64,000 nt of DNA from an uncultured Candidatus Saccharibacteria bacterium (lineage in GTDB: Bacteria > Patescibacteriota > Saccharimonadia > Saccharimonadales > JALRHH01): positions 18,123 to 82,122 of the forward strand of contig CAYYUY010000001.1 of assembly GCA_964474995.1 (NCBI GenBank), in the 5' to 3' direction. A model generated the notes under the pieces. That model made no database searches, was not told the DNA's origin, and saw only the letters and a program-made list of their open reading frames with translations. Positions 4,463-64,000 of this stretch are shown piece after piece (the stretch's first letter is position 1; each line of letters starts with the position of its first letter). The translations under genes were made by a program, and so were the position numbers.

Positions 4463-5059
4463 TTATTTATCAGACTTTGTAATTTTGCGTAGCAATTGAG
4501 GATGGTACGGAATCGCTGTCAGAGCTAGGGTCCCAATGAGGCCTACTGCCCAGGCGATGACGCTGAGTTGTAGTTGTTGATTTTCTTCGTGCTCGATTTC
4601 GCGTAAGTTTTTGCCAGCCAACACAAATCCCGCATGCTTGGAATTTTGGTAGTACCGGACAACAACTGCAACCCGGACGTTCTTCTGGGGTTGCCAAGTA
4701 ATGCGATCTTCACCATGTTTCTGCGCGTAGTCGTAAACACCGCGTGGCAAGCTCGGTAGTTGATCATTCAGTCGTCCCGTACCGTCGGCTGCCCGGCCGT
4801 TGCTATCATATAGAATCACAAACGGCGCCACGCTACTGGCAATATCGATTGATTGACCGGATAGCTGGGCGCTTGGGTTTTTATTGTTAAATAGATCAGT
4901 TGCCAGATTTTCAGCAAGATAGATCTGTGGATCGTTTGCTGCAGTTCGGATGTGTTGCTGTATGGTGCCATATATAAAGCCAATAAGAAGTGTGATTGTA
5001 AATGCATAGGGGAGCCAAGCAATAAGATGTTTTTTGCTGGCGGGGTGTATCGAAATCAT
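4463..5059 (-). CDS. Hypothetical membrane protein: TM - about 130-aa extracytoplasmic domain - TM (sensor-domain-like topology)
   Basis: Hydrophobic segments near residues 13-32 and 162-182. Last gene of the co-directional run 7483->4463. It has its own TATACT box 6 nt upstream of the ATG. Confidence 0.6.
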   Translation of the reverse strand: MISIHPASKKHLIAWLPYAFTITLLIGFIYGTIQQHIRTAANDPQIYLAENLATDLFNNKNPSAQLSGQSIDIASSVAPFVILYDSNGRAADGTGRLNDQLPSLPRGVYDYAQKHGEDRITWQPQKNVRVAVVVRYYQNSKHAGFVLAGKNLREIEHEENQQLQLSVIAWAVGLIGTLALTAIPYHPQLLRKITKSDK

Positions 5060-5065
5060 GAGTGT

Positions 5066-5071
5066 AGTATA
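5066..5071 (-). promoter_or_regulatory. -10 box TATACT, 6 nt upstream of ATG 5059
   Basis: The minus strand reads GGCGTATACT-ACACTC-ATG. Confidence 0.5.
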
Positions 5072-5080
5072 CGCCTGTTA

Positions 5081-6088
5081 TTAGTTGTGATTTTCAAGTA
5101 GGGCATTATAGTTGGCGACTTCATAGTTGTATTCATTACGTATGCTCTGACAGCTTGTAAGCGCTGCGTTGATATCTTGTTCTTCGAAGATGTCATTTTG
5201 CTTATATGCATCCTGTCTTTTTTTGGCAGCTGCTTGGCACTGTGCGTACGATTTGGCGAGTACTTGGGTTTTTGTGAACTGGGCCTGTTCGGCCTTATCG
5301 GGCGAAAATGGTCGCTGTGCGTAGATGAATAATCCAAGACCGCAGACGAGCGCTACAACCGTGCTACTCATTACGAGCCTCAAGGCTGTTCGGTGAGTTT
5401 TTTGATTGGCTTGCCTGATGACTTGCGGCGCACTTCGGGGTTTAACAGCTTGGTGTTGGTAATATGGTGGCATAAGTTGACCAGCGTTTTTGGATAACTG
5501 TGCCATGACTATCTTTCCGTCTTGACTCGATGCATGGCAAAAACTTGAAAAGAGGCGAGCGTAGCTTGCTGCCGAATAGGCCTCAAGTACCTGGAAGTGG
5601 GGTTGCTGTTTTTTTATACCGTGGTGCCACCACCCCAATGTTGTGGGTCGTTCCGCGATACCATTTAGGATGATTACTCCTAAGCCACTTTCGATTGATG
5701 CGGTTTCGGCAAGCGTTTGGGGTGCATGTTGCTTCAATCGTCGCTCCAGACAGTGCTGCAGGACAACTAATGTCAAACTACTAGCAAGCTGATAAGGATG
5801 TGCCAAAAGCCCCCGAGGCACTCGTATCGTGCTATCAGTCTGTTCAACCACATTGCTTTCGACGAGTGTGACATGAATTTTTGTCGGCTTTGAACCCAAC
5901 CATTGATAGATCTCCCGAATCGCATGCACAATACCTTCCTCGGTCGACAATTGATTATAGAAACTCGTCGTTGGCTTGAAGAGCACATTACGATGAGGTA
6001 GTCGGTGGAGTAACGTCTCCTCGAGTAGCGCTTGTTCATCTTCTCGTGATAACAGCTCACCAACATCCGGTACGGTCACATTATGCAT
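5081..6088 (-). CDS. Hypothetical protein: about 240-aa cytoplasmic domain, one TM, coiled C-terminal tail
   Basis: Long ORF with no family motif I recognise. TM segment at LVMSSTVVALVCGLGLFIY. Lies 36 nt downstream of the HAD-kinase gene. Confidence 0.6.
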   Translation of the reverse strand: MHNVTVPDVGELLSREDEQALLEETLLHRLPHRNVLFKPTTSFYNQLSTEEGIVHAIREIYQWLGSKPTKIHVTLVESNVVEQTDSTIRVPRGLLAHPYQLASSLTLVVLQHCLERRLKQHAPQTLAETASIESGLGVIILNGIAERPTTLGWWHHGIKKQQPHFQVLEAYSAASYARLFSSFCHASSQDGKIVMAQLSKNAGQLMPPYYQHQAVKPRSAPQVIRQANQKTHRTALRLVMSSTVVALVCGLGLFIYAQRPFSPDKAEQAQFTKTQVLAKSYAQCQAAAKKRQDAYKQNDIFEEQDINAALTSCQSIRNEYNYEVANYNALLENHN

Positions 6089-6124
6089 ATGCTTTGTATT
6101 GTACCGTACGTGCAGGCCGTATGC

Positions 6125-7483
6125 TTAGATAAACTTTTGGCTGCGCTGATGGATATCGGTGATGAGGTTTGGGTTGTGGTGTTTCATTGCTGCCCGGGTG
6201 AACCATGAGAGGTTATTTATATGGAGCTCATTGAGGGTCAGTGTGAACGTTTTTTTATCAAGCGCAGTGTGTGCTGCCATGAGTGCATGGTTTGGTCCAA
6301 TGAGTATAGCCGTTGATATCAGGAGCTCTACGTTGTCTCGTAGCTGGTTCGCAAGCGGTGCAGCGGTAGTGGCAAAGTCAAAATTTGTCAGCCACGGCTG
6401 GCCTTTTGTATCAATGACAATGTTCCTAAGATTACAATCACCGTGTGCAATTTTTGCACGATGCAGAAGACTCACTTCTTTCCATATTGATCCAAGTAGT
6501 TGCTGCGTAACACGTTTGAGTGGCAGCATATCAACCGTACTGCCATCAATAGTTTTGGTTGCAAGGCCGAACCGATAATCTCCCAGATCTAGCACTCCAA
6601 GGATGGCTGGGGTGTGTACTGCCCCGTCGCGAGCCTGTTGCATAATATATGCTTCATGTTCCAAGATGTGTTTTGCACCAAAATAAGGTGCTGCTTCACC
6701 GTTCCATGAAGGGTATAGATAGCGCCAAAGCCGTTGTATCCAGTTGGTAGTGCTACGCCAACGGTTGAGTACTTTTATCGAGACGGACTGTTTGGCTCCA
6801 TACGTAATGAACAGGAGCGCGCCGCTCGGTAGTCGTACTGGTTTACTCATCACGCCTGATTTGATGCCAAGCTTGTGCAGCCCACTACGGATGTAGTCGG
6901 GGGTTGAGCGGACGTCATTACTTTTAATATGTATTGCTTCGGCAAGCGTACGATATTCACGCCAACGTGCCAAAAATAAATAATCGAACCAGTAATCACG
7001 ACCGCGCCGTTTAACGAGCACGGTGTAGATACCAAGTCGGTTTGCGCCGGCGACGTCAAGGCGTACCTTATCGCCAATCATCACGGTCGTTTTGGGGTCT
7101 GCGCCAAGCTCTTCCAGTACACGTGCATAAAACATAGGATTTGGTTTTCTGATCATGTGAAGGCCATGCCAAAATGGTTGAAAAATGCGAGCCTGGAGCG
7201 GCTCTGCATAACGTGACAAGTTACGATTGTTATTACTGACGATATTAATTGACTGGAATGTCTTTTTTTGCGCCAAAGTTGCAAAAAAATCAACCACTTC
7301 AGTGTCGAGTTTCCGTGAATACGCTTGTCTGAGTGTCTGGTCAAGATCCATAAGTAAGTGTTTGATACCAATTGAGCGTAGCAGCTCAAAGTCTACCTCA
7401 AGAATTCCGTCTGCTACAAAGTCAGGTAAATAAGGAGATATTTTAACTTTGTCGGTTGTTTCGTTATACCCAACTGCTCTCAT
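6125..7483 (-). CDS. Fusion protein: HAD-IIIA (YqeG/GEP4-like) phosphatase domain + protein-kinase-like (Kdo/RIO/APH-type) domain
   Basis: The N-terminal half has HAD motifs (LLMDLDQTL, IVSNN, GDKVRLDVAGANRLG). The C-terminal half has the kinase catalytic loop HGDCNLRNIVI and the metal-binding NFDFA (DFG-like). Confidence 0.75.
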   Translation of the reverse strand: MRAVGYNETTDKVKISPYLPDFVADGILEVDFELLRSIGIKHLLMDLDQTLRQAYSRKLDTEVVDFFATLAQKKTFQSINIVSNNNRNLSRYAEPLQARIFQPFWHGLHMIRKPNPMFYARVLEELGADPKTTVMIGDKVRLDVAGANRLGIYTVLVKRRGRDYWFDYLFLARWREYRTLAEAIHIKSNDVRSTPDYIRSGLHKLGIKSGVMSKPVRLPSGALLFITYGAKQSVSIKVLNRWRSTTNWIQRLWRYLYPSWNGEAAPYFGAKHILEHEAYIMQQARDGAVHTPAILGVLDLGDYRFGLATKTIDGSTVDMLPLKRVTQQLLGSIWKEVSLLHRAKIAHGDCNLRNIVIDTKGQPWLTNFDFATTAAPLANQLRDNVELLISTAILIGPNHALMAAHTALDKKTFTLTLNELHINNLSWFTRAAMKHHNPNLITDIHQRSQKFI

Positions 7484-7490
7484 GGTATCT

Positions 7491-7496
7491 ATTGTA
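7491..7496 (-). promoter_or_regulatory. -10 box TACAAT, 7 nt upstream of ATG 7483
   Basis: The minus strand reads TCATTACAAT-AGATACC-ATG. Confidence 0.55.
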
Positions 7497-12586: not shown

Positions 12587-12629
12587 CGAATGTAGCATAG
12601 GACCTCTGTGATATAGTAGAGTCCATATT

Positions 12630-13592
12630 ATGACAAAATCAGACTACGCAATACAGGTAAAAGGACTCAGAAAATCCTACGGCACAAACGAAGTATTGCG
12701 TGGCATTGATCTAGAAGTTGAGCCTGGCACTATGCTTGCATTACTCGGTCCAAACGGTGCCGGCAAGACCACAACCGTTCGCATACTCAGTACGTTGCTT
12801 CATTATGACAAAGGCAGCGTGCAGGTTGCTGGGTTTGACGTTGCACACCAGGCAGACGATGTCCGTGGTGTAATTGGACTTACGGGTCAATCAGCAGCAG
12901 TTGATGAACTACTTACGGGTCGTGAGAATTTGGTTATGATGGGTCGGCTCTACCGTCTAACCAAACAAAGTGCTACGGCGCGTGCGAAGGAACTACTTAC
13001 ACAATTTGATCTCGTAAAAGCGGCTGATCGTCCAGCCAAGACGTACTCGGGTGGTATGCGTCGTCGTCTCGACCTTGCGGTCAGCCTCATCGCTACGCCA
13101 CCAATTATTTTTCTTGACGAACCGACGACTGGACTCGACCCGCGATCTCGTCTTGCGATGTGGGATATTATCAAAAAGTTGATGGCTGATGGTACAACTA
13201 TTTTGCTGACAACACAGTACCTTGAGGAGGCTGATCAACTGGCCGACCAAATTGTGGTTATTGACGGTGGCAAGGTGATCGCCAAAGGTACCGCTTCTGA
13301 GCTCAAGAGCAAAATTGGCAAAGACCGCTTGGAGCTAACTTTCAAAAATACTACGGCACTTGATGTCGCCAAGAAAACACTTGGCAAAGCAGTCATTGAT
13401 ATTAATGACAAAGAATATTCGCTTAGTCTGACCATTACGGACACTAATAAGGATGTTAAAAACGTTCTGGATAAGTTAGCGAGTACCAAAGCAGTGATCA
13501 CCTCAATAGCGGTTCATAAGCCAACACTTGATGATGTATTCTTGTCACTCACTGGCAAGCAGAAGCCAGCAAAGAAAGCAGAGGATAAGTAA
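12630..13592 (+). CDS. ABC transporter ATP-binding protein (DrrA / ABC-2 type)
   Basis: Walker A GPNGAGKTT, signature YSGGMRRRLDLA, Walker B IIFLDEPTTGLD. Confidence 0.9.
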   Translation: MTKSDYAIQVKGLRKSYGTNEVLRGIDLEVEPGTMLALLGPNGAGKTTTVRILSTLLHYDKGSVQVAGFDVAHQADDVRGVIGLTGQSAAVDELLTGRENLVMMGRLYRLTKQSATARAKELLTQFDLVKAADRPAKTYSGGMRRRLDLAVSLIATPPIIFLDEPTTGLDPRSRLAMWDIIKKLMADGTTILLTTQYLEEADQLADQIVVIDGGKVIAKGTASELKSKIGKDRLELTFKNTTALDVAKKTLGKAVIDINDKEYSLSLTITDTNKDVKNVLDKLASTKAVITSIAVHKPTLDDVFLSLTGKQKPAKKAEDK

Positions 13593-15108: not shown

Positions 15109-16887
15109 TTATTCTATCTCGTATTTCTGAAGTTTCTTTTTGTCTGCTTCTGCGCCACTTTGTTGGAGATGTAGGAGCTGTGCGTAGATACCATCACTCT
15201 TGGCAAGTTTCTTTGGCGTGCCGATTTCGTCGGCTTTACCATTGATAAGCGTGACAATAGTATCAACTGCTTCAATTGTGCTGAGACGGTGAGCAATGAT
15301 TAGTGTGGTGCGGCCCTTCATGAGTCGCTCAAGTGCTTGTTGTACGAGTCGTTCGCTCTTGGTGTCGAGACTGCTAGTGGCTTCATCAAGTATGAGTATT
15401 GGCGCATCTTTGAGCAGGGCACGGGCGATTGCAATTCGTTGTTTTTGGCCGCCACTGAGCTTGAGTCCGCGTTCACCGATTTCGCTATCGTAGCCATGTT
15501 CAAATTTGTCGATGAATTCATGAGCGTTGGCTGCTCGTGCCGCCGCTTCAATGGCTTCACGTGTGGCATCTGGCCGTGCGTAGGCAATGTTTTCCTTGAT
15601 AGTACCACTGAAGAGTGCTGGCTCTTGGAATACGACAGCAATGTTGCTACGTAGGCTTTGCTGGGTGACTGTAGTGATGTCTTGTCCGTCGATAGTGATA
15701 CTACCCTTGGTTGGTTCATAGAGCCGCAGAAGCAGACTGGTAACGGTGGTCTTGCCTTGGCCACTCTCACCGACGAGTGCGAGTTTGCTATCGGCAGGAA
15801 TAGCGAATGATAGTTTTTTAAGAACGTGGTCATCTTTTTCGTAGCCAAACTCGACGTCATTGAATTTGATAACACCGTCAGTCACAACCAGCGATTTTGC
15901 GTTCTTTATATCTTGGATCTCAGGTTTTTCATCGATTGCCAAGAAGTAGTCACGGCTATCGGCAATTGCGCGTTGTGTTCGGTCTACGTAGAAGCTCAGG
16001 CTAAAGAGTGGCAGGCGCACAAGCTGGACGAACTGTACAAGCAGCACCATGGTGCCAAGCGTGTATTTTCCTTGCGCCGTGCCGACAAAAATTATGGCGT
16101 ACATTGCCAGGAACAATACTGACAAGACAAAGCGACGAAGCACATCCTGGCTGTGCCAGTATCGACTCTGTGGGCGAGTAGTGCCAATGATCAGATCAAG
16201 TAAATTGGTGTAATGCTTGAGCTCAAGCTTTTCATGGACAAAGCTTTTGACGACGCGCACTTGCCCAACGCTTTCAGCGAATCGACCACTGGCCTCGTCG
16301 GTGTATTTGTTGACATCCTTTTGGTAGGCTTGCCACTTGGCACTGCTCCTGGTGGTCAGCCACGCATAAGTAGGGAATAAGATCAGCAATATGATTGCCA
16401 CCGGCCATGCGTAAAACGCCACGATTGCGACCGTAAAAATAGTACTTACGATGAGCTGTAAGAAGTTATTGGCTACGAACTGCATGTAATCAGTCAATTG
16501 TGAAACACCGCGGTTCAACCGGTTTATGATGGTTCCAGTTAGCTCGGTGTCGAAGTATCGCTGAGGGAGCGTCAGTATATGACTGTAGTAGCGAGTGCTC
16601 AGGAGTCGCCGCAGTTTGGCTGCTAGTAGATCACCATAATATCCACCAATATTGCTGACCATTGTCTGCGCCAAATCGCATAGAAATATCGCAACTACAA
16701 TTACTACGATTGGTGTGATTGTGGTGTTGTGTGTCTGTAATCCGGCGCTGATGTGGTCGATAGCTGATTTGGTTAGTAGCGGGATGGCCTGTGTTAGTAA
16801 TGCAACCACAACACTAAATGCAGACACGGTGGCATAAAACGGCCACAACTCACCAGTAAACCGGACAATACGGAAAATATTCTTCAT
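15109..16887 (-). CDS. ABC exporter, fused permease/ATPase (MsbA/type I exporter-like)
   Basis: Six-TM N-terminal domain. Walker A GESGQGKTT, signature LSGGQKQRIAIARAL, Walker B ILILDEATSSLD. Confidence 0.9.
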   Translation of the reverse strand: MKNIFRIVRFTGELWPFYATVSAFSVVVALLTQAIPLLTKSAIDHISAGLQTHNTTITPIVVIVVAIFLCDLAQTMVSNIGGYYGDLLAAKLRRLLSTRYYSHILTLPQRYFDTELTGTIINRLNRGVSQLTDYMQFVANNFLQLIVSTIFTVAIVAFYAWPVAIILLILFPTYAWLTTRSSAKWQAYQKDVNKYTDEASGRFAESVGQVRVVKSFVHEKLELKHYTNLLDLIIGTTRPQSRYWHSQDVLRRFVLSVLFLAMYAIIFVGTAQGKYTLGTMVLLVQFVQLVRLPLFSLSFYVDRTQRAIADSRDYFLAIDEKPEIQDIKNAKSLVVTDGVIKFNDVEFGYEKDDHVLKKLSFAIPADSKLALVGESGQGKTTVTSLLLRLYEPTKGSITIDGQDITTVTQQSLRSNIAVVFQEPALFSGTIKENIAYARPDATREAIEAAARAANAHEFIDKFEHGYDSEIGERGLKLSGGQKQRIAIARALLKDAPILILDEATSSLDTKSERLVQQALERLMKGRTTLIIAHRLSTIEAVDTIVTLINGKADEIGTPKKLAKSDGIYAQLLHLQQSGAEADKKKLQKYEIE

Positions 16888-16895
16888 TAGTTATT

Positions 16896-16901
16896 AGTAT
16901 A
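16896..16901 (-). promoter_or_regulatory. -10 box TATACT, 8 nt upstream of ATG 16887
   Basis: The minus strand reads CGCTATACT-AATAACTA-ATG. Confidence 0.5.
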
Positions 16902-18835: not shown

Positions 18836-19739
18836 GTTTGTCTCCTTGCGGCTGGTAGTAGTGCATAAAGGCTTCTTCTAGATCAAGTGTCCGTGTATCA
18901 ATATCGGTCACCGTGTGCTGAGCAAGCAGGGCAAATAAAGGAGTGAGTTCGCCGCGAACGTGGAGCGTGACGCTATGAGGGTTGTTTTCTATCACATTCT
19001 GGACGCTAGAAAGCTGCTTCAATTTGCCAAGCGGTGTGTTCTCTTTAAACGTTAAATCAAATGTTTGGGCGGCTTCTTCGGCCATCTCGGCAATGTTTCG
19101 TTCGGCTATTAGCGTACCGTCCCGAATAATCCCAACCCGATCGCAAACTTTTTGAACTTCTCCCAAAACATGACTGCTCGTAAAAACAGCAGCGCCTCGA
19201 GCCTTTGATTCATTAATAAGCTCATAAAATACTTCTTGCATCAACGGATCCAGGCCGCTGCTTGGTTCGTCTAAAATCAGCAGCTTTGGCTGGTGCATAA
19301 AAGCTTGAATGATTGAAATTTTCTGTCTGTTGCCGCGTGAAAGCGATCCGAGCGGTTTATCGAGTGTTGCTTGCAGGCGTTTTGCGAGCTCGTGTTTGTA
19401 AGCCTTAGTGGCCGGTGGCTGTAACTCACCTAAATATTCTAAAAACTGATGCCCAGTCATTTTAGAATAAACTGCCCCATCACCAGCGAGGTAGCCAATC
19501 TCTCGTTTAATCTTTACGGAATCTTTAACGATGTCGAGTCCTAATATTGTGGCACTACCACGCGTGGGCTGAATAAAATTCATCAGTGTTTTGATTGTTG
19601 TAGACTTGCCTGCACCGTTTGGCCCTAAGAAACCGTAAACTTCGCCGGGCCCTACCTGCAGTGTCAGATCTTTAAGCGCATAGGTATCTGTGCCTGAATA
19701 TTTTTTAGAAAGGTTAGTAGTAATCAATACACTGTCCAT
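18828..19739 (-). CDS. ABC transporter ATP-binding protein
   Basis: Walker A GPNGAGKST, signature LSRGNRQKISIIQAF, Walker B LLILDEPSSGLD. I moved the start to ATG 19739 (MDSVLITT...) because a TATAGT box lies 7 nt upstream. The track start at 19757 is a TTG. Confidence 0.88.
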   Translation of the reverse strand: MDSVLITTNLSKKYSGTDTYALKDLTLQVGPGEVYGFLGPNGAGKSTTIKTLMNFIQPTRGSATILGLDIVKDSVKIKREIGYLAGDGAVYSKMTGHQFLEYLGELQPPATKAYKHELAKRLQATLDKPLGSLSRGNRQKISIIQAFMHQPKLLILDEPSSGLDPLMQEVFYELINESKARGAAVFTSSHVLGEVQKVCDRVGIIRDGTLIAERNIAEMAEEAAQTFDLTFKENTPLGKLKQLSSVQNVIENNPHSVTLHVRGELTPLFALLAQHTVTDIDTRTLDLEEAFMHYYQPQGDKHV

Positions 19740-19746
19740 AGACAGT

Positions 19747-19752
19747 ACTATA
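19747..19752 (-). promoter_or_regulatory. -10 box TATAGT, 7 nt upstream of ATG 19739
   Basis: The minus strand reads TTGCGG-(17 nt)-TATAGT-ACTGTCT-ATG. A TTGCGG -35-like hexamer sits at canonical spacing. Confidence 0.55.
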
Positions 19753-20170: not shown

Positions 20171-20176
20171 TACAAT
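20171..20176 (+). promoter_or_regulatory. -10 box TACAAT, 7 nt upstream of ATG 20184
   Basis: CGGTACAAT-ACTTGTA-ATG, with no SD in the gap. Confidence 0.55.
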
Positions 20177-20183
20177 ACTTGTA

Positions 20184-21116
20184 ATGAATCGAGCGAAACT
20201 CGCCCGCATAGTGGGTATACTAGGCACGGCCATATGTATTGGTCTGTTTATTCATGAGCCAAGTTGGCCAACACCAGATAAGTTACTAGTGTTTATGGCC
20301 TTTGTATTTATGAGTTTTGGCCAGGCCATTGAGATGCTCAAACGATTTGTCCCGTTTGTTGGGCTGCTGCTTGTATATGAGTCATTCCGCGGAATCGCTG
20401 ACACGCTCAATACTAGAGTGCATTTCACGATGATGGCGGATTTCGACAAATGGATGTTCGGTGGTGCCTTGCCAACGGCCACTTTGCAGCACTGGCTGTG
20501 GCACGGCCATGTACAGTGGTATGATTTTGCATTTTATATCGCATACATGTTGCACTTTGTATTGCCCATATCGCTGGCGATTGTCATCTGGAAGAAGCGG
20601 GAATCACAGTATTGGCGCTACGTCTCGGCATATGTATTTGCATCATTTGTTGGCTTTCTGACATACATCCTCTACCCAGCAGCACCACCATGGATGGCAT
20701 CAAATATGAATATAATCGAGCCAATAACTCGAGTATCAAGTTCGGTATGGGCAGCGCTTGGCATCCACGACTTCCCATCACTCTATAATGATATTTCACC
20801 AAACGCAGTCGCGGCAGTACCATCGCTACACGCAGCATATGCCACGATGTTCGCGTTGTTTGCGATCACACTATTCAAATCTCGCTGGCGTTACCTGGCA
20901 CTACTTCAACCGTTCCTTATATATGTGGGTACCGTGTACCAGGGCGAGCATTACGTGTTTGATGAGCTCGTCGGCGCACTACTCGGGGTGGTGGCGTACC
21001 TTATCTCACCATACATTGTTCGAGGCATACGACATACGTACCGCAAGGTGCGAACTCATGCCCATCAGACACACAAAAAGGTGAAGTTAAAAGCTGCCAA
21101 GAAGGCTGTGCTATAA
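20184..21116 (+). CDS. PAP2-superfamily membrane protein (Aur1/inositolphosphotransferase-like PAP2_C)
   Basis: Polytopic membrane protein with PSLHAAY and GEHYVFDELVG (C2 and C3 phosphatase motifs). Confidence 0.72.
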   Translation: MNRAKLARIVGILGTAICIGLFIHEPSWPTPDKLLVFMAFVFMSFGQAIEMLKRFVPFVGLLLVYESFRGIADTLNTRVHFTMMADFDKWMFGGALPTATLQHWLWHGHVQWYDFAFYIAYMLHFVLPISLAIVIWKKRESQYWRYVSAYVFASFVGFLTYILYPAAPPWMASNMNIIEPITRVSSSVWAALGIHDFPSLYNDISPNAVAAVPSLHAAYATMFALFAITLFKSRWRYLALLQPFLIYVGTVYQGEHYVFDELVGALLGVVAYLISPYIVRGIRHTYRKVRTHAHQTHKKVKLKAAKKAVL

Positions 21117-21117
21117 T
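21109..21117 (+). promoter_or_regulatory. Extended -10 promoter TGCTATAAT for the riboswitch-metK transcript
   Basis: Perfect TGnTATAAT overlapping the stop codon of the upstream PAP2 gene. Confidence 0.55.
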
Positions 21118-21139
21118 TGAAGTTACGTTACTAAACGTA

Positions 21140-21293
21140 AAAGTATAAAGAGTGCAGCGAGAGAACTAGCTCGATGACCTGCCGGCAACCTACAGATTAA
21201 CTGCAAGGTGCTACGTCTAGCCCGCATAGCCGGGAAAGATATGAGTCACGTATGTCTCCATCCTTTCCGTGTGAATGCAGAAAGGATATTTTT
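21140..21293 (+). promoter_or_regulatory. SAM riboswitch candidate (SAM-I clan: SAM-I / SAM-I-IV / SAM-IV like) with terminator expression platform
   Basis: Core motifs appear in the right order upstream of metK. These are AAGAGUGCAGCG (21148-21159), k-turn-like GAUGA (21173-21177), CGGCAACC (21183-21190), AAGGUGCUA (21205-21213) and GAAAGAUAUGAG (21234-21245). Helices GCAG/CUGC, CGAG/CUCG and CCCG/CGGG can be drawn. P1 is weak (about 4 bp), so the subtype is uncertain. Confidence 0.7.
21260..21293 (+). terminator. Intrinsic terminator / SD-sequestering hairpin of the metK leader
   Basis: AUCCUUUC (21260-21267) pairs with GAAAGGAU (21280-21287), followed by AUUUUUA and then AUG at 21294. The 3' arm contains the only SD-like sequence (AAAGGA). 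Confidence 0.72.
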
Positions 21294-22412: not shown

Positions 22413-23587
22413 AACAAATCGAGGTCTTTGAGCTCGTCTGGTAAAAAGCCTTTTTCATGCTTGAAGTCTGCCTCCCACTTATAGCCTTTGCCGTAACCGA
22501 GGTCACCCATGAGCTTGGTCGGTGCGTTTCGAATATGGAGTGGAGGCGCAAGGTTGCTATGAGTCTTTGCAGCCTCGGTCGCACGGCTCATGGCATCGGC
22601 CACTACCCGTGATTTGCTGGCTTTGGCGAGCACCAAGGCACAGTGGAACAGATTGTACTTACACTCTGGCATACCAATCCGTTCGACGGCCATAAAGGTG
22701 CTGACGGCCAGGTTCATGGCAGGAGATGCGGCAATGCCTATATCCTCACTGGCAAATATAACCATACGTCTGGCTATAAATTTGGGATCTTCGCCGGCTT
22801 CGAGCATGCGTGCCAAATAATAGAGTGACGCATTGGCGTCACTCCCACGCAGTGATTTTATGAAGGCGCTAATAATGTTGTAGTGGAAGTCGCCCTTTTT
22901 GTCGTAGTGTGGCATGCGTTTCTGCGCCGCAGTCGTGATTATCTCTGGGGTTACTACGTCTTTGCTGAGCTGCAAAGCAAGCTCGAGGTTGCCGAGGGCC
23001 ACACGGGCGTCACCGCCAGATAACTCTGCTAACAGATCAATACTTTTGGCGGGTAGTCGGGTAGTACTGATCTTTTCTGCCTTTGCGACGTTTTTGATGA
23101 TTTTGATGATGTCGGTTTTTGTGAGAGGTTCTAATACCAATACTCGGCTGCGGCTGAGGAGTGGATTGATGACTTCAAAGCTTGGGTTTTCGGTGGTCGC
23201 GCCAATTAATACGATAGTGCCATCTTCGACATGTGGCAGGAAGGCATCTTGCTGGGCTTTATTGAACCTATGAATTTCATCGACAAATAATATTGTCCGC
23301 ATACCAAGCCGCTGATTTGCTTGAGCCATACCAATAACCTTTACGACATCAGCCTTGCCAGATGTGACAGCGCTGAGTTCCATGAATTCAGCACCCGTTT
23401 CCTTGGCAATAATGCGCGCTAGAGTGGTTTTGCCACTGCCTGGAGGCCCCCACAAAATTAAGCTCGTTGGTTGCTTTTTTGCGACAATCTCGCGAATTAT
23501 TTGTCCAGGTTCGAGTAGATGCTTTTGGCCAATAACATCTTTGAGTGTTTCTGGCCGCATTCGTTCGGCGAGTGGAGTCCCATACAT
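22409..23587 (-). CDS. rarA: Replication-associated recombination protein A (AAA+ ATPase RarA/MgsA)
   Basis: Walker A GPPGSGKTT, Walker B LFVDEIHRFNK and the MgsA C-terminal domain (YDKKGDFHYNIISAFIKSLRGSD). Confidence 0.9.
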   Translation of the reverse strand: MYGTPLAERMRPETLKDVIGQKHLLEPGQIIREIVAKKQPTSLILWGPPGSGKTTLARIIAKETGAEFMELSAVTSGKADVVKVIGMAQANQRLGMRTILFVDEIHRFNKAQQDAFLPHVEDGTIVLIGATTENPSFEVINPLLSRSRVLVLEPLTKTDIIKIIKNVAKAEKISTTRLPAKSIDLLAELSGGDARVALGNLELALQLSKDVVTPEIITTAAQKRMPHYDKKGDFHYNIISAFIKSLRGSDANASLYYLARMLEAGEDPKFIARRMVIFASEDIGIAASPAMNLAVSTFMAVERIGMPECKYNLFHCALVLAKASKSRVVADAMSRATEAAKTHSNLAPPLHIRNAPTKLMGDLGYGKGYKWEADFKHEKGFLPDELKDLDLF

Positions 23588-23594
23588 ATGTAAT

Positions 23595-23600
23595 AGTATA
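23595..23600 (-). promoter_or_regulatory. -10 box TATACT, 7 nt upstream of ATG 23587 (rarA)
   Basis: The minus strand reads GCCGTATACT-ATTACAT-ATG. Confidence 0.55.
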
Positions 23601-25543: not shown

Positions 25544-25549
25544 TACAAT
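25544..25549 (+). promoter_or_regulatory. -10 box TACAAT, 6 nt upstream of ATG 25556 (corA)
   Basis: GGTTACAAT-ATCCCT-ATG. Confidence 0.55.
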
Positions 25550-25555
25550 ATCCCT

Positions 25556-26482
25556 ATGTACACGATCTACCACAATACCGCTCGCGCTCGTGAGCTGGCT
25601 AGCCTTGAACGTCCAAGAGCAGGCAGCTGGCTTTCGCTTGTTGCGCCGACAAATGAAGAGCTCATAGAGTTTGCTGAAAAGTACAAGCTCGACGCTGACT
25701 TACTAAATGACGCTACTGACATCTACGAAGCGCCACGTATCGAAACAGACGAAGGCAACGTCTATATCTATGCTCGCTATTGTCACCCGGAAGGTAAAGA
25801 AATTGCTACCGAACCGCTCTTGATCATCTATACGCCAGACTATCTGATTACGATCACTCGTATTGAGAGTGACATCTTCGACCGTATTCTGGCGAACCGC
25901 GTAGAAATTATTACGACCCAAAAAACCAAAGCTTTGATGCAGATTTTATCAGAAGTTAATTTCTCGTATCGCAGTCACCTGAACAAAATATCCAAGCAAA
26001 CACTACGGTTGCGTGCGCAGCTCCGCCAATCCCAAGTTGCCAACCGCGATTTTGTAAGCATGATTGAAGTCGAAGAAGATTTAAATGAGTTTTTGACAGC
26101 ACTGCAACCACAGGCGTCAATGCTTGCGGTGCTCGTTGGTGGCCGTTATCTCCGTCTGTATGAAGAGGACCGCGATATGGTTGAAGACCTTACGCTGAGT
26201 ACAGCAGAGCTCATTGAGCTTACTAAATCACGCCTTCGAGGCCTCGCGAATATCCGTCAAGCTTATGACACGATTGCAACGAACAACTTAAACCAAACCT
26301 TCAAACGGCTGACTTCGATTGCTATCTTTCTGACCATCCCAACAATCGTTGGTGGACTGTGGGGAATGAACGTTGCGGTGCCACTGCATGACTATCGACA
26401 TGCATTCAGCGTTGTTATAGTACTCATCGCAGGCTTGATGGCCGGTGCGGTGTATTTATTCCACCGCAAACACTGGCTCTAG
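25556..26482 (+). CDS. corA: CorA-family magnesium/cobalt transporter
   Basis: Two C-terminal TM helices with the GMN signature (GLWGMNV). Confidence 0.85.
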   Translation: MYTIYHNTARARELASLERPRAGSWLSLVAPTNEELIEFAEKYKLDADLLNDATDIYEAPRIETDEGNVYIYARYCHPEGKEIATEPLLIIYTPDYLITITRIESDIFDRILANRVEIITTQKTKALMQILSEVNFSYRSHLNKISKQTLRLRAQLRQSQVANRDFVSMIEVEEDLNEFLTALQPQASMLAVLVGGRYLRLYEEDRDMVEDLTLSTAELIELTKSRLRGLANIRQAYDTIATNNLNQTFKRLTSIAIFLTIPTIVGGLWGMNVAVPLHDYRHAFSVVIVLIAGLMAGAVYLFHRKHWL

Positions 26483-27468: not shown

Positions 27469-27533
27469 TAAGACTCATATTGTACGGCTAAATGACATGG
27501 TTACACAAGGGGTTCTGTTACAATTCAGGGTAT

Positions 27534-27908
27534 ATGGAACTACCAGACGAACTATTTGAAAAACTTATTGGCCAGGCAATGGATGAATTGCCACAAGAGT
27601 ATATCGAACGAATTAACAATGTTGCGGTTACCTATGATGATGAACCTTCACCCGAGCAACGTGAGCGCTTGAAGTTACGCTGTAACGAAACACTATTTGG
27701 TCTCTACGAGGGAATCCCACTTACCAAGCGAGGTTCGGGATATAATTTGGTATTACCTGACAAGATCACAATTTTTAAGCGACCAATCTTGGCCGCGGTT
27801 CATAACGAAGCGGAGCTAAAAGAACAGATCAAGCGAACGCTTTGGCATGAACTTGCGCATTACTACGGTCTTGATCACGATCGAATCCACGAACTTGAAC
27901 AGAAGTAG
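27534..27908 (+). CDS. Zincin-like metallopeptidase family protein (DUF1025/Zincin_1)
   Basis: C-terminal HELAHYYGLDH (HExxH). I moved the start to ATG 27534 (MELPDELFEKL) because TGTTACAAT lies 9 nt upstream. The track start is 27492. Confidence 0.75.
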   Translation: MELPDELFEKLIGQAMDELPQEYIERINNVAVTYDDEPSPEQRERLKLRCNETLFGLYEGIPLTKRGSGYNLVLPDKITIFKRPILAAVHNEAELKEQIKRTLWHELAHYYGLDHDRIHELEQK

Positions 27909-29252: not shown

Positions 29253-29258
29253 ATCTTT

Positions 29259-29264
29259 ATTGTA
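29259..29264 (-). promoter_or_regulatory. -10 box TACAAT, 6 nt upstream of ATG 29252 (PIG-L)
   Basis: The minus strand reads ACGTTACAAT-AAAGAT-ATG. Confidence 0.5.
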
Positions 29265-29308
29265 ACGTATATCCATAATGGGTGGATATGTGGTAGCATA
29301 AGGCCTTA

Positions 29309-31651: not shown

Positions 31652-31657
31652 GTTGCA

Positions 31658-31666
31658 ATTGTCTCA
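31658..31666 (-). promoter_or_regulatory. Extended -10 TGAGACAAT, 6 nt upstream of ATG 31651 (Fur-family gene)
   Basis: The minus strand reads TGAGACAAT-TGCAAC-ATG. It overlaps the left arm of the intergenic inverted repeat. Confidence 0.5.
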
Positions 31667-32465: not shown

Positions 32466-32478
32466 ACATACGCCTAAC

Positions 32479-32487: not shown

Positions 32488-32493
32488 ACAGCC

Positions 32494-42764: not shown

Positions 42765-42821
42765 AAGTTCGTAGGCAGCCGCGGTATACTTGATACATAA
42801 ATTAGTGAGAGAGGGTATTTC

Positions 42822-43376
42822 ATGAGTTCAACACGACTTCATCAGCGTGTTTTTGCGATGGTGTTCGCACTACTATTTCTAGCGACAGCACTTGCCGGTG
42901 GTGCAGTCGTTGTCTGGCAAATTCATCAAGATGGCAAGAAGACACCGGTAGCTCAATCGAGTTCAACAACAGATACAACTAAACAAGGAGAAACTACATT
43001 GCAAGGAACTAAACTCAGCAACTTCGAACCAATTGCCAAAATTGACAAGCTTACATCTATCGACACAGTCGTCGGTACCGGCGAAGAAGTCAAAGCTGGC
43101 GCATCTGTAACTGCTCACTATACTGGCGCAGTTGCCGCAACTGGCATCATCTTCCAGAGCTCACACGATGGTGCAAACCAGCCAATTCCATTCTCGCTCA
43201 ACGGCGTGATCCAGGGTTGGACTGAAGGCGTACCCGGCATGAAAGTTGGTGGTACTCGTCGCTTGCTCATCCCGGCTGCACAGGCATATGGTGCAAATCC
43301 ACCTGCAGGTTCTGGCATCCCAGCAAACGCTGACCTCGTATTCGATATTGAGCTAACAGCGGTCCAAAATAACTAA
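42822..43376 (+). CDS. FKBP-type peptidyl-prolyl cis-trans isomerase, membrane-anchored/secreted
   Basis: N-terminal TM or signal segment, then the FKBP core (VTAHYTG ... FSLNGVIQGWTEGVPGMKVGGTRRLLIPAAQAYG). Confidence 0.88.
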   Translation: MSSTRLHQRVFAMVFALLFLATALAGGAVVVWQIHQDGKKTPVAQSSSTTDTTKQGETTLQGTKLSNFEPIAKIDKLTSIDTVVGTGEEVKAGASVTAHYTGAVAATGIIFQSSHDGANQPIPFSLNGVIQGWTEGVPGMKVGGTRRLLIPAAQAYGANPPAGSGIPANADLVFDIELTAVQNN

Positions 43377-52394: not shown

Positions 52395-53242
52395 CCCAGA
52401 AGGCCGCGAGCTTCAGCGGTTGCGGCAGTATGTTGCCATATCTGAACGACATGCTTTGGGCCAAGTATAATTGGGCAGCCAAATGGCGCTGCTTTTGCAG
52501 TGACATCGTCAAGCGTTTTGGCGTGACGTTGCGGCTCGCCAGCTAGTAAGACCGCTTTTCGAGCGCCAGGTGTCATGGGCATATCAAGCAGGGAAGTCTT
52601 ATAGTCAAGCCGACCTTTAGTCACTTCAGCAGCAGGCAAATCACCCCGTGGAAGCATATATGCTTCCACAATTTCAAGCTGGGACTCATTGATTTTTGTA
52701 AGTTCAATTAGAGGTCTGACACTGTAATCCATGACTGCTCTTGAGTCATCACTGTGCTTCTCGTGGAGATCTTTGAGAAGGGCCGTAGAAACCCTAACCC
52801 CTGTTTGGGATCCCAGTAGCAACGATCGTTCGGGGTGTTTTCGGATATATGGTCGAAGACGGCGGCGTATTCCCTGCAAAACCATGAGATTTTCAAGATC
52901 CGTAGCGTTGCTCCTATCGTCGAACACCTCTTGGGAGGCGATTTTGTATTGTTTTTGGAGGTCTAGGCGTAGTTTTTTCCAAGGAGAAAAAGTTATAGGA
53001 TGTCGCAGTTCATCGGGCAGTTCGGCAGTGGCTTTAGTTGTGATCTGGCCAATAAACCTACTGAAGTAAGCAGCGCTGACTGGTTTTAGCGTCGCATCCA
53101 ACATATACGCTTCAGGAGTACATCGAGGTGGTAGCTCGCTGGGTATATCAGGTATTGGAATACTTTCTTCGCGAAGGTATTCATGAGCGATTCGTCGTGC
53201 CTCAGCCGCACTGTTATATGGACATTCCTGATTCTCTGGCAT
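52391..53242 (-). CDS. Hypothetical protein (283 aa), no recognisable family
   Basis: Long uninterrupted ORF with TGTTATAAT 8 nt upstream of its ATG. Its stop overlaps the fba stop (CTAG). Confidence 0.6.
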   Translation of the reverse strand: MPENQECPYNSAAEARRIAHEYLREESIPIPDIPSELPPRCTPEAYMLDATLKPVSAAYFSRFIGQITTKATAELPDELRHPITFSPWKKLRLDLQKQYKIASQEVFDDRSNATDLENLMVLQGIRRRLRPYIRKHPERSLLLGSQTGVRVSTALLKDLHEKHSDDSRAVMDYSVRPLIELTKINESQLEIVEAYMLPRGDLPAAEVTKGRLDYKTSLLDMPMTPGARKAVLLAGEPQRHAKTLDDVTAKAAPFGCPIILGPKHVVQIWQHTAATAEARGLLG

Positions 53243-53250
53243 AGAAGTTA

Positions 53251-53259
53251 ATTATAACA
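53251..53259 (-). promoter_or_regulatory. Extended -10 TGTTATAAT, 8 nt upstream of ATG 53242
   Basis: The minus strand reads TGTTATAAT-TAACTTCT-ATG. Confidence 0.55.
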
Positions 53260-56285: not shown

Positions 56286-56294
56286 TGATACAAT
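56286..56294 (+). promoter_or_regulatory. Extended -10 TGATACAAT, 6 nt upstream of ATG 56301 (uvrB)
   Basis: TGATACAAT-GTAGTG-ATG. Confidence 0.6.
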
Positions 56295-56300
56295 GTAGTG

Positions 56301-58265
56301 ATGAGTAAGTTCGAGTTAACATCTGACTACAAACCAACTGGCGATCAACCGGCTGCTATAAAGCAGCTTACTGAAGGTTTGTTGGCTGGTGAAAAAGAGC
56401 AAACGCTACTGGGTGTTACTGGTTCAGGTAAGACGTTTACTATGGCCAATTTGGTTCAGAATATACAGCGTCCAACGCTTGTACTGAGCCACAACAAAAC
56501 GCTTGCCGCACAACTTTACAATGAGTTTAAACAATTCTTTCCGAATAACGCCGTTCATTATTTTGTCAGTTACTTCGATTATTACCAGCCGGAAGCATAT
56601 ATTGCTCGCTCGGACACGTTCATTGAAAAGGATAGCCAGATCAATGAAGAGATTGATCGACTTCGTCACGCTGCTACAGACGCTTTGTTGAGTCGCAAGG
56701 ACGTGCTAATCGTTGCGAGTGTCAGCTGTATTTACGGTATTGGTTCGGTTGAGGACTACAACGGACTGTCAGTTACATTAGAACGTGGTGAGCGTCGGGT
56801 TCGTGACAAATTGCTTCGACAACTGACAGATATTCAGTATCAACGTAATGATATTGACTTCCATCGTGGTACATTCCGCGTTCGTGGCGATGTAGTTGAT
56901 ATTTTCCCAGCCTCAGAAGAGGTCGCTTACCGTGTCGAATTCTTCGGCGATGATATCGATCGTCTCACGAAGCTTGACCCACTAACGGGTGAAGTATTGG
57001 CAAATCTCGATACCATTAAGGTATTTCCGAGTAGCCACTACGTCACACCGCAGGAAAAACTCAAACAAGCTCTCGGCAAGATTGAAGGTGAACTCGACGT
57101 GCGTTTGAAGGAATTCAAAGGCCAGGGCAAATTGGTTGAGGCCCAGCGCCTAGACCAACGTACTAAGTTTGACCTTGAAATGATGGAGCAAACAGGCTTT
57201 GTGAAAGGAATAGAGAACTATAGCCGTTATCTTACCAATCGTGAGCCAGGCGAGCAGCCAGCCACATTACTCGATTATTTCCCGGACGATTATTTGCTGC
57301 TAATTGATGAATCACATATGACATTGCCACAGATTCGTGGCATGTATAACGGCGATCGTGCCCGCAAAGAAGTACTTGTTGAGCATGGTTTTCGGTTACC
57401 CAGTGCACTTGATAACCGTCCGCTGACTTTCACAGAGTATGAAAAGCACGTCAATCAGGTAGTCTATGTATCGGCGACGCCAGCGGCGTACGAACTTAGT
57501 CGCAGCAGTGAGCCGGCGCAGCAGGTCATTCGCCCGACTGGTTTGATTGATCCCAAGATAGAGGTCCGGAAAATCGATGGTCAAATTGACGATCTACTTG
57601 GTGAAATCCGTGCGACAATCGCCAAGCGGCAACGTGTATTGATAACGACACTTACAAAACGTATGTCAGAGGACTTAACCGACTACCTAAAAGAAATCGA
57701 CATTAAAGTCACCTATCTTCACAGTGACGTTGATACGCTCGACCGAACAGATATTTTACGCGACTTGCGGCTGGGTATTTACGATGTGGTTGTTGGTATC
57801 AATTTGCTTCGTGAGGGTTTAGACCTACCAGAAGTCAGTCTGGTGGCGATCTTAGATGCCGACAAAGAAGGTTTCCTGCGCAGTGAACAAGCGCTGATTC
57901 AGACCGTTGGACGTGCTGCTCGTCATGTTGAAGGCCGAGTCATTATGTATGCAGACAAAATCACTGGTAGTATGCAGCGAACCATCGATGAAACCAATCG
58001 TCGTCGTGCTATTCAGAAAGCACACAACAAAAAACATGGCATCACCGCAACCGGCATCAGCAAATCCATTGAGAAGGGCATGCGTCCTGACTTGCCAGAA
58101 GATGCCAAAACGGCCAAACTCAATCTCAAGAAAATTCCAAAAGACGAATACAAGAATTTGATAAAAGAACTTTCAGGTCAGATGGACCTCGCTTCTGCTA
58201 ATCTAGAATTCGAAAAAGCCGCCGAACTCCGGGATATCATCGCTGATATCAAATCAAAGATGTAA
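56301..58265 (+). CDS. uvrB: Excinuclease ABC subunit B
   Basis: GVTGSGKTF Walker A, DESH box ([12 protein letters not shown]), helicase motifs and the C-terminal UVR domain ([11 protein letters not shown]). I chose ATG 56301 because TGATACAAT lies 6 nt upstream. Confidence 0.94.
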
Positions 58266-59399: not shown

Positions 59400-59408
59400 T
59401 GCTATACT
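59400..59408 (+). promoter_or_regulatory. Extended -10 TGCTATACT, 7 nt upstream of ATG 59416 (gatC)
   Basis: TGCTATACT-GGAGTAA-ATG. The GGAG is only 3 nt from the ATG, too close to act as an SD. Confidence 0.6.
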
Positions 59409-59415
59409 GGAGTAA

Positions 59416-59709
59416 ATGACGAAGTTGTCCCGCGAAGATGTATTGAGATTGGCCCAATTAGCCCGCGTTGGTTTAACCGACGATGAGGTTACGGAGTTCA
59501 GTAATGAGCTGACTGCCATATTGCAGTACGTGGAGCAGCTCGCAGACGTCGATGTTTCTGGCTTGCAGCCAACGAGCCAGGTTACAGGGCTTACTAATGT
59601 TACTCGTGCCGACGAAATCAAAACATATGGTTATGATACTGAAGTACTCCTAAAGAACGTGCCAACGGTAGAGGGCAATCAAATCAAAGTCAAAAGGATG
59701 ATTGGTTAA
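59416..59709 (+). CDS. gatC: Asp/Glu-tRNA(Asn/Gln) amidotransferase subunit C
   Basis: LSREDVLRLAQLARVGLTDDEV ... QPTSQV is the typical GatC pattern. First gene of gatCAB. Confidence 0.9.
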   Translation: MTKLSREDVLRLAQLARVGLTDDEVTEFSNELTAILQYVEQLADVDVSGLQPTSQVTGLTNVTRADEIKTYGYDTEVLLKNVPTVEGNQIKVKRMIG

Positions 59710-63028: not shown

Positions 63029-63030
63029 TC

Positions 63031-63930
63031 ATGGAAACAAAGAAAGTTCGAAAAGCAGTCATTGCGGCTGCAGGCTTTGGTACGAGGTTTTTGCCGCAGA
63101 CGAAGGCTATGCCGAAGGAAATGCTTCCGCTCGTCGATAAGCCAATCATTCAATACATCGTCGAGGAACTTGTGGACGCTGGTATTGAAGATATCGTGAT
63201 CGTGACGGGCTATCATAAGCGTGCAATTGAAGACCACTTTGATGATATCAGCGAAGATTTGCGACAAAATCTCATTCAAGGCGGCAAAGATACGATCTTG
63301 GAAGACGTGCAGAAGGTGTCTAATCTCGCAAACTTTGCCTATATTCGCCAAAAGGGTCCGTACGGCAACGCCACACCGATTCTTAATGCAGCCCATCTCA
63401 TCGGGGATGAACCGTTTATCTATACGTTTGCTGATGACTTTGTAGTTGCCAATCCTGTATCACGCTTCAAGCAGATGATGGAAGTTTATGAACGTACTGG
63501 CGCCAACGTCCTGACATGTATCAAAGTTCACAAGGATGAAGACTTCAGACGCTACGGCATCGTCGCTGGCGAAGTCCAAGATGACGGCCTTTTTAAGATG
63601 AGCACCATTATCGAGAAACCAGGCAAAGAAAATGCCCCGAGCGATCTCGCAAGTGTCAGCGGCTACATATTCAATCCAGAACTGTTTCATTATCTCCAAG
63701 AAGCCAAAGAAACATTGGTGGCTGGCGAAGAGTTTATACAGCAACCGTCAATGCAACGTATGATCAACGATGGCCATACGTTCTACGGACTTGAGATTCA
63801 AAATGGCAAATACTACGATACTGGTAATAAGCTTGAATACTTAAAAACAGTCGTTGATTTTGCACTTGAGCACGATGACCTGAAAGATGATTTTTTAGCC
63901 CACTTACGAGAAGTTGTGGATAAGAGTTAG
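63031..63930 (+). CDS. galU: UTP--glucose-1-phosphate uridylyltransferase
   Basis: KAVIAAAGFGTRFLPQTKAMPKEMLPLVDKPIIQY is the canonical GalU N-terminus. Confidence 0.92.
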   Translation: METKKVRKAVIAAAGFGTRFLPQTKAMPKEMLPLVDKPIIQYIVEELVDAGIEDIVIVTGYHKRAIEDHFDDISEDLRQNLIQGGKDTILEDVQKVSNLANFAYIRQKGPYGNATPILNAAHLIGDEPFIYTFADDFVVANPVSRFKQMMEVYERTGANVLTCIKVHKDEDFRRYGIVAGEVQDDGLFKMSTIIEKPGKENAPSDLASVSGYIFNPELFHYLQEAKETLVAGEEFIQQPSMQRMINDGHTFYGLEIQNGKYYDTGNKLEYLKTVVDFALEHDDLKDDFLAHLREVVDKS

Positions 63931-63939
63931 TGGTATACT
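63931..63939 (+). promoter_or_regulatory. Extended -10 TGGTATACT, 7 nt upstream of ATG 63947
   Basis: TGGTATACT-ACATACT-ATG. The same 9-mer occurs at 35523-35531, 12 nt upstream of the pheS ATG. Confidence 0.5.
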
Positions 63940-63946
63940 ACATACT

Positions 63947-64000
63947 ATGCACAATGCCGAACAAATCCTCGTAATCATCCTTTCATCATTTCTTGCAATC
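63947..64000 (+). CDS. 5' end of an ORF running off the window (hydrophobic N-terminus MHNAEQILVIILSSFLAI)
   Basis: TGGTATACT lies 7 nt upstream of the ATG. This matches the leaderless pattern seen elsewhere. Only 18 codons are visible. Confidence 0.3.
   Translation, partial: MHNAEQILVIILSSFLAI

Follow-up and report, generated by a model that had tools for sequence, protein, structure and literature searches.

Start-adjacent -10 elements suggest leaderless or nearly leaderless expression of many transcription units in a Candidatus Saccharibacteria genome segment

The stretch of DNA analyzed here (the window) spans 64,000 nucleotides (nt) of an uncultured Candidatus Saccharibacteria bacterium (assembly GCA_964474995.1, contig CAYYUY010000001.1, positions 18,123 to 82,122) and contains about 65 genes in a coding-dense arrangement at 47% G+C. 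Fourteen of these genes are preceded by a hexamer resembling a bacterial -10 promoter element, which ends only 6-8 nt before the ATG, and most of the fourteen are very probably expressed from messenger RNAs (mRNAs) that are leaderless or carry leaders of at most 2 nt. Leaderless initiation had been proposed in a preliminary description of the window. That reading is supported by the mutual exclusion of the box and the Shine-Dalgarno sequence, by conservation in orthologues, by a sharp lower limit of the spacing at 6 nt, by restriction to ATG and GTG, and by promoter features surrounding the hexamer; where transcription of these genes starts and how ribosomes are recruited to their mRNAs would follow from this architecture. 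The description of the source as a reduced genome fits the membership of the window in the Saccharibacteria (TM7, Candidate Phyla Radiation), and the gene names it had assigned are backed by Pfam (rarA/MgsA, CorA, PIG-L, Fur, RmuC, GatC, PheS, SodN, NUDIX, VOC/glyoxalase and pyrophosphatase).

Inspection of the 45 nt upstream of the fourteen starts first listed located the hexamer at 6-8 nt from the ATG of a long open reading frame (ORF) in every case, the gap being the number of nt between the end of the hexamer and the start codon. These strict sites are listed below with strand, box, gap, start codon and gene.

5057..5071 (-): TATACT (5066-5071), 6 nt, ATG 5059; hypothetical protein
7481..7496 (-): TACAAT (7491-7496), 7 nt, ATG 7483; HAD hydrolase/kinase-like protein
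16885..16901 (-): TATACT (16896-16901), 8 nt, ATG 16887; ABC transporter
19737..19752 (-): TATAGT (19747-19752), 7 nt, ATG 19739; ABC ATPase
20171..20186 (+): TACAAT, 7 nt, ATG 20184; PAP2 phosphatase
23585..23600 (-): TATACT, 7 nt, ATG 23587; rarA/mgsA
25544..25558 (+): TACAAT, 6 nt, ATG 25556; corA
29250..29264 (-): TACAAT, 6 nt, ATG 29252; PIG-L/LmbE deacetylase
31649..31663 (-): TGaGACAAT (degenerate -10), 6 nt, ATG 31651; Fur-family regulator
32482..32496 (+): TGcTACAAT, 6 nt, ATG 32494; rmuC
53240..53256 (-): TGtTATAAT, 8 nt, ATG 53242; hypothetical protein
56289..56303 (+): TGaTACAAT, 6 nt, ATG 56301; uvrB
59403..59418 (+): TGcTATACT, 7 nt, ATG 59416; gatC, first gene of gatCAB
63934..63949 (+): TGgTATACT, 7 nt, ATG 63947; ORF extending past the window end

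The last of these boxes begins 4 nt past the stop codon (63930) of the upstream gene. Seven further starts had been described as looser cases at 9-12 nt, and their gaps of 9, 9, 9, 10, 10, 12 and 12 nt match that range. We refer to them as near-leaderless; the assignment of 29309 is ambiguous, since its gap contains AAGG.

6086..6103 (-): TACAAT, 9 nt, ATG 6088
12612..12632 (+): TGaTATAGT, 12 nt, ATG 12630; ABC ATPase
27466..27484 (-): TACAAT, 10 nt, ATG 27468; CNNM/CBS protein
27519..27536 (+): TGtTACAAT, 9 nt, ATG 27534; zincin-like protein
29294..29311 (+): TGgTAGCAT, 9 nt, ATG 29309; DUF475/TerC protein
34865..34883 (-): TATACT, 10 nt, ATG 34867; GH63-like hydrolase
35526..35546 (+): TGgTATACT, 12 nt, ATG 35544; pheS

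The enrichment of this arrangement was measured with a strict -10 motif, TA[CT]AnT, over 65 gene starts in the window; as the null model, the 40-nt upstream regions were shuffled 2000 times with their dinucleotide content preserved. The strict motif lies 6-8 nt from 13 of the 65 starts, compared with 0.86 on average and at most 6 in the shuffles. Extending the range to 6-12 nt raises the count to 19 of 65, with 2.0 in the shuffles. Nine starts with in-frame alternative start codons, among them four that had been chosen in the preliminary description, were dropped to give an ambiguity-free subset of 56 starts, and in this subset the strict motif still stands at 6-8 nt in 10 cases (0.72 in shuffles). 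Broken down by gap, the window counts are 5, 6 and 2 at 6, 7 and 8 nt and 2, 2 and 2 at 9, 10 and 12 nt, with a single occurrence across gaps of 0-5 nt and none at 13-19 nt. No peak appears when TANNNT is scanned for in front of any ATG irrespective of ORFs; the signal emerges only when the ATG is required to open a long ORF.

The spacing profile is resolved by a wider set of 1749 ORFs of at least 90 codons, which form 517 families and come from the window together with 106 related loci. Per 1000 N-terminal ATG/GTG codons, the strict box occurs 1.9 times at 4 nt, 1.6 at 5, 37.3 at 6, 18.1 at 7, 17.1 at 8, 13.4 at 9, 12.8 at 10 and 7.5 at 11, with about 3 beyond those gaps. At internal in-frame ATG/GTG codons the rate is about 1.2 per 1000 at every gap, and the 6-nt peak stands roughly 29-fold above it. 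A peak at 6-8 nt, which the leaderless proposal had predicted, is also present after family weighting and exclusion of the window (22.1, 15.0 and 19.0 families at 6, 7 and 8 nt versus about 3). So sharp a cut-off at 6 nt is expected from the geometry of promoters, because a closer box would put the transcription start inside the ORF.

The arrangement is also specific for the start codon. In the wide set, 9.4% of N-terminal ATG codons (76 families) have it in front of them; the share is 2.6% for GTG and only 0.2-0.7% for TTG, CTG, ATT, ATA and ATC (0.5% for TTG). Shine-Dalgarno-led genes of the same set start with ATG, GTG and TTG in 519, 76 and 52 cases, TTG thus accounting for 8%. Leaderless translation depends on a 5'-terminal AUG, and GUG is reportedly functional as well in mycobacteria (Shell et al. 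2015).

Box-adjacent starts and Shine-Dalgarno sequences exclude each other in the window. A Shine-Dalgarno core at least 4 nt from the start precedes none of 19 box-adjacent genes, whereas it precedes 34 of 46 other genes (Fisher p = 1.1e-8). With a stricter core (GGAG, GAGG, AGGA or AAGG at 4-12 nt) the numbers are 29 of 44 other genes, versus 6.5 in shuffles, and 1 of 21 box-adjacent and near cases, versus 1.3. The Shine-Dalgarno examples given earlier for sodN, the NUDIX gene, the VOC gene and ppa are all correct, and the coexistence of two initiation modes that they had been taken to indicate is borne out by this mutual exclusion. The statement that no 6-8 nt gap holds a Shine-Dalgarno sequence agrees with the count of zero in 19 and needs one qualification, as the gap of gatC (59416) contains GGAG, which lies 3 nt from the ATG and is unconserved in orthologues.

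Counted by position, the window comprises about 43 transcription units, namely 14 strict, 7 near and about 22 leadered, while about 20 genes are operon-internal. The arrangement had been attributed to most operon-first genes, which is too high an estimate: 14 of about 43 transcription units are strict and 21 of 43 carry a start-adjacent box when the 9-12 nt cases are included, that is, a third to a half. The remaining genes, comprising the operon-internal ones and about half of the first genes, are Shine-Dalgarno-led, indicating that the anti-Shine-Dalgarno system is intact and that the two modes exist side by side.

Orthologues allow for a comparison of the same starts across species. Loci flanking uvrB in 80 species (L001-L080) were found by a UvrB protein search at 80-85% amino-acid identity, and their titles are almost all those of Candidatus Saccharibacteria or Saccharimonadales metagenome-assembled genomes; several of the loci lie on contigs 0.5-0.9 Mb long. 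In the 74 uvrB orthologues that align from residue 1, a TAnnnT box is present in all 74, the gap to the ATG or GTG is exactly 6 nt in 69, TGn is found in 57 and a Shine-Dalgarno sequence in none; GTG serves as start in 21. Information content upstream of uvrB is high only at tg.tacaat (-15 to -7) and at a G at -1 (1.1 bits), and falls to about zero upstream of -16. For gatC, the box lies at 5-12 nt in 68 of 70 orthologues, with TGn in 53 of 70 (TGnTATACT). The operon-internal gatA retains an AAGAGGA-type Shine-Dalgarno sequence inside the gatC end across orthologues. The N-termini are conserved from the first codon, as seen in the M-x-K-F of UvrB and the MANFSFD of DUF520.

A second comparison set, consisting of metagenome loci fetched around the CNNM gene, displays the same behavior for other genes. 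The arrangement of rmuC is kept in 6 of 6 orthologues, and fur carries TGnTAnAnT, 6 nt and ATG in 3 of 3. The box lies at 6-8 nt from rarA in 6 of 7 orthologues and at 9 nt in the remaining one, at 6-9 nt from the GH63-like gene in 5 of 5, and at 6-8 nt from DUF475 in 3 of 3; it is also present before DUF520 in 3 of 3. Close CNNM orthologues that have the box mostly hold it at about 10 nt, and those of pheS at 8-11 nt, indicating that the loose class is a conserved short-leader class rather than noise. The loci of distant CNNM homologues (L105-L139, 26-48% identity except for two short fragments) are too A+T-rich and too short for the pattern to be judged.

The surroundings of the hexamer resemble those of a promoter. 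An extended -10 element (TGn) had been ascribed to these sites; TGn is indeed more frequent than the expectation of 1/16 (p = 9e-6), although it is found in only 8 of 19 window cases, and a G at -14 in 14 of 19. A hexamer-aligned, family-weighted profile displays T, T and G at -23, -22 and -21 with frequencies of 0.48, 0.47 and 0.33, corresponding to a weak -35 element at a 17-bp spacer, together with a G at -14 in 46% and an A directly after the hexamer in 60%. In extended -10 promoters the -35 element is dispensable. Several start-adjacent promoters are housed in same-strand gaps of 16-55 nt (5059-5081, 25503-25555, 32466-32493 and 63931-63946), which places their -35 regions inside the end of the preceding gene and reflects extreme compaction. 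The starts of the divergent pairs 27468/27534 and 29252/29309 lie just 65 and 56 nt apart, too close to fit extra promoters plus leaders between them.

Of 22 Shine-Dalgarno-led first genes, 12 also have the same strict box, at a distance of 21-97 nt upstream, and two comparators illustrate this more distant placement.

42785..42824 (+): TATACT 31 nt before ATG 42822, with a GAGAGGG Shine-Dalgarno sequence; leadered gene
21109..21245 (+): TGcTATAAT (hexamer 21112-21117) about 22 nt before an S-adenosylmethionine (SAM) riboswitch at 21140-21245

The riboswitch (Rfam RF00162, 49.3 bits) heads metK, which starts at ATG 21294 behind an AAAGGA Shine-Dalgarno sequence. The TGcTATAAT in front of it serves as the promoter of a non-coding leader and cannot be a ribosome signal. 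As a non-coding control, tRNA-Gln (CTG; 19854-19928, -) displays no convincing -10 box upstream; this tRNA gene and the ABC ATPase gene 19739 downstream of it are 115 nt apart.

We interpret the hexamers as likely -10 elements of housekeeping sigma-70-type promoters, with the consensus TAyAaT, a common G at -14 and TGn in about 40%; at about a third of the transcription units, the hexamer ends 6-8 nt before the start codon. Across bacteria, transcription starts center 7 bp downstream of -10 elements (PMC12641261). As RNA polymerase starts about 7 nt past the -10 element, the transcript would begin at, or 1-2 nt before, the A of the AUG (or the G of the GUG). Such an mRNA, having no Shine-Dalgarno sequence, would need a leaderless route, in which the ribosome binds the 5'-terminal AUG directly. 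In the group with gaps of 9-12 nt, the leaders are probably 2-6 nt long, too short for a Shine-Dalgarno sequence.

Several observations weigh against strictly leaderless expression from these boxes. The conserved G at -1 of uvrB may be the first transcribed base, which would give a 1-nt leader. The gaps of gatC vary between 5 and 12 nt and often contain purine-rich, GGAG/GAGG-like sequence between box and ATG, hence in some members the leader may be very short and contain a partial Shine-Dalgarno sequence. Over 19-36 kb, a generic two-hexamer search for sigma-70 promoters yields no enrichment (31 sites versus 25.7 in shuffles), which is explained by the weak -35 elements of these promoters. 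Read-through transcripts with long untranslated stretches may also occur where promoters trail same-strand genes by 16-55 nt.

The alternative that best survives is that the promoters are real and the leaders measure 1-6 nt, with the polymerase starting 5-7 nt after the box. We regard this as a genuine possibility that falls clearly below an even chance, and as a refinement rather than a contradiction, given that such mRNAs would still lack a Shine-Dalgarno sequence and would still need 5'-end-dependent initiation. It is favored by the seven window genes with gaps of 9-12 nt, by the spacing in orthologues of CNNM (about 10 nt), pheS (8-11 nt) and gatC (5-12 nt), by a clade-wide box rate that is raised up to 11 nt, and by the G at -1 of uvrB. 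On the other side, the mode of the gap at exactly 6 nt places the usual start on the A of the ATG, and enrichment below 6 nt is zero.

Alternatively, TAnnnT could represent a translation signal, A/U-rich and S1-dependent or otherwise non-Shine-Dalgarno as in Bacteroidetes, located within a longer leader transcribed from an unseen promoter. The fixed position of the motif relative to the start codon, the missing Shine-Dalgarno sequence at these genes and the weak -35 element would agree with such a signal. However, operon-internal genes lack the motif and use Shine-Dalgarno sequences, and TGn, the G at -14 and the TTG at a 17-bp spacer are features of promoters. The motif moreover occurs at variable long distances before Shine-Dalgarno-led genes and before the riboswitch, the closely spaced divergent pairs could not house further promoters and leaders, and the sequence upstream of -17 at uvrB is unconserved across 74 species, so that we consider a translation signal very improbable. 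Chance occurrence in A+T-rich intergenic DNA, or the picking of starts to fit, was tested and is rejected with near certainty: four starts (19739, 27534, 29252 and 56301) had indeed been picked with the pattern in mind and the naive TANNNT-ATG scan has no peak, but the excess over shuffles holds for all and for unambiguous starts, related genomes, as an independent set, show the roughly 29-fold peak over internal ATG/GTG, and the picked starts agree with the N-termini of orthologues and with protein lengths.

The four picked starts are each favored by comparison with orthologues or homologues. For uvrB, orthologues begin with M-x-K-F and carry the box 6 nt upstream, in agreement with a start at 56301. 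The zincin-like start at 27534, preferred over 27492, has its counterparts in L087 and L089, which carry box and ATG at the equivalent codon. Likewise, orthologues of the ABC ATPase in L087 and L113 carry box and ATG in favor of 19739 over TTG 19757. The PIG-L start at 29252, rather than 29276, is consistent with the lengths of its homologues, 100 of 120 of which measure 239-243 amino acids and fit the 240-residue and not the 248-residue form; the homologues start 5-10 residues ahead of a conserved PLxPK. The NCBI copy of this PIG-L/LmbE gene (100% identical; 28530-29276, -) is annotated as the longer form of 248 amino acids. From this case, annotated starts in Saccharibacteria assemblies may often sit too far upstream at leaderless-type genes.

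The Fur-family gene (31651, -) and a ZIP metal transporter gene (+) are divergent. A start of the latter at 31650 (+) was rejected, as that ORF overlaps the fur start and orthologues carry stop codons there; the transporter most likely starts at ATG 31740, behind an AAAGGA Shine-Dalgarno sequence. In the region 31652-31739, just upstream of the fur start and overlapping its promoter, lies a conserved block, TTGCAAATTTGTCGCAAT, kept in the related loci L083, L085 and L089. This block is likely a Zur/Fur operator, which would give autoregulation.

Two other genes outside the start-adjacent group deserve description. The typA/bipA gene (ATG 23685; region 23610-23687, +) lacks both a start-adjacent box and a Shine-Dalgarno sequence at a suitable distance, its promoter TTGCTA-17-TGaGATAAT lying about 46 nt upstream of the start. 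Directly before the AUG, its leader holds a U-run preceded by a short GC hairpin, and a similar hairpin with T-run is seen in two orthologues (L096 and L097); the hairpin fold is insignificant in the window sequence (-9.7 kcal/mol, z = -1.27). A small protein encoded at 17613-17921 (+), Shine-Dalgarno-led and operon-internal, has a prepilin-like N-terminus (…FSIIELTIVLVVV…). Type IV pili are known in Saccharibacteria, and the predicted protein would be consistent with them.

Comparison of individual genes across genomes reveals that the initiation signal is not fixed. In the window, the galU-like gene at 63031 (+) has a Shine-Dalgarno sequence and begins 2 nt after gatB; among orthologues aligned from residue 1, 18 of 23 carry TGnTACAAT at 6-8 nt, and other orthologues carry a Shine-Dalgarno sequence. 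Gene 46748 (-) is leadered in the window, with TTGTACACT located 57 nt upstream, while most of its orthologues carry the same box mostly 7-9 nt from the ATG. DUF520 (35431) has no box in the window and has one in its three orthologues. These differences indicate that genes move between two initiation modes. It is conceivable, at somewhat short of an even chance, that leaderless initiation is a lineage-wide major mode in Saccharibacteria, perhaps in the wider Candidate Phyla Radiation, with orthologues often switching modes.

The closest known counterparts are the leaderless genes of Actinobacteria. In M. tuberculosis, the Pribnow box of leaderless genes lies 6-8 nt from the start, and the "group C" of GeneMarkS-2, to which leaderless species are assigned, consists mainly of Actinobacteria and Deinococcus-Thermus (PMC6028130). 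Actinobacteria of this group (M. tuberculosis, M. smegmatis, C. glutamicum and Streptomyces) resemble the window in the 6-8 nt Pribnow box at first-in-operon genes, in Shine-Dalgarno sequences at the remaining genes, in the use of both ATG and GTG, in a share of about 25-50% of transcription units, in a weak or absent -35 element and in frequent TGn. In contrast, the genome here is that of a Candidatus Saccharibacteria lineage, about 1 Mb in size at 47% G+C, and its -10 element is unusually sharp (TACAAT/TATACT). Deinococcus deserti (de Groot et al. 2014) is alike in that many mRNAs start at the start codon, with a strong adjacent -10-like motif and coexisting modes. That case is founded on differential RNA sequencing and proteogenomics (167 of 262 tested genes, as cited in PMC6028130), whereas ours is built on sequence and its comparison.

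Extended -10 sigma-70 promoters are similar in the TG or G at -15/-14, a strong -10, a poor -35 and an expected start about 7 nt downstream (PMC12641261); they differ in that TGn, although overrepresented, occurs here in fewer than half of the window cases (8 of 19), though in 57 of 74 uvrB orthologues. Archaeal leaderless mRNAs (group D) likewise start at the AUG and have a promoter signal at fixed distance, but the archaeal signal is a TATA box/BRE at about -26, whereas here a bacterial -10 element lies at -12 to -7.

Leaderless expression is thus a known phenomenon that is apparently undescribed for the Saccharibacteria phylum. For Saccharibacteria (TM7), Patescibacteria and the Candidate Phyla Radiation, full-text literature searches yielded only incidental citations and no description of leaderless mRNAs. 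The comparative surveys consulted predate or omit these phyla, and a survey of 260 species lacks them. A study of Candidate Phyla Radiation ribosomes describes bS1 as shortened and some ribosomal proteins as frequently lost, and leaves leaderless mRNAs unmentioned, as a TM7x transcriptome preprint does transcription starts, promoters and untranslated regions. For Nanosynbacter lyticus TM7x, 188 transcription starts were used in PMC12641261. Automatic annotation pipelines may already model leaderless starts silently.

Bacteria of the Candidate Phyla Radiation, Saccharibacteria among them, are currently being brought into culture and genetically manipulated, and to our knowledge the promoters and translation signals of the Candidate Phyla Radiation are essentially undescribed. 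The consensus TGnTAyAaT, together with the rule that a box followed by 6-8 nt and ATG or GTG marks a gene start, improves start-codon annotation and explains intergenic regions of just 16-65 nt. In expression cassettes for these organisms, the promoter could be fused directly to the ATG. The finding would also add a reduced-genome lineage to the heavy users of leaderless expression, in line with Actinobacteria and Deinococcus-Thermus. If leaderless initiation does prove to be a major mode throughout the lineage, the box rule would serve for correcting start codons in thousands of Saccharibacteria assemblies, and the mode of initiation would be tied to the genome compaction and reduced ribosomes of the Candidate Phyla Radiation.

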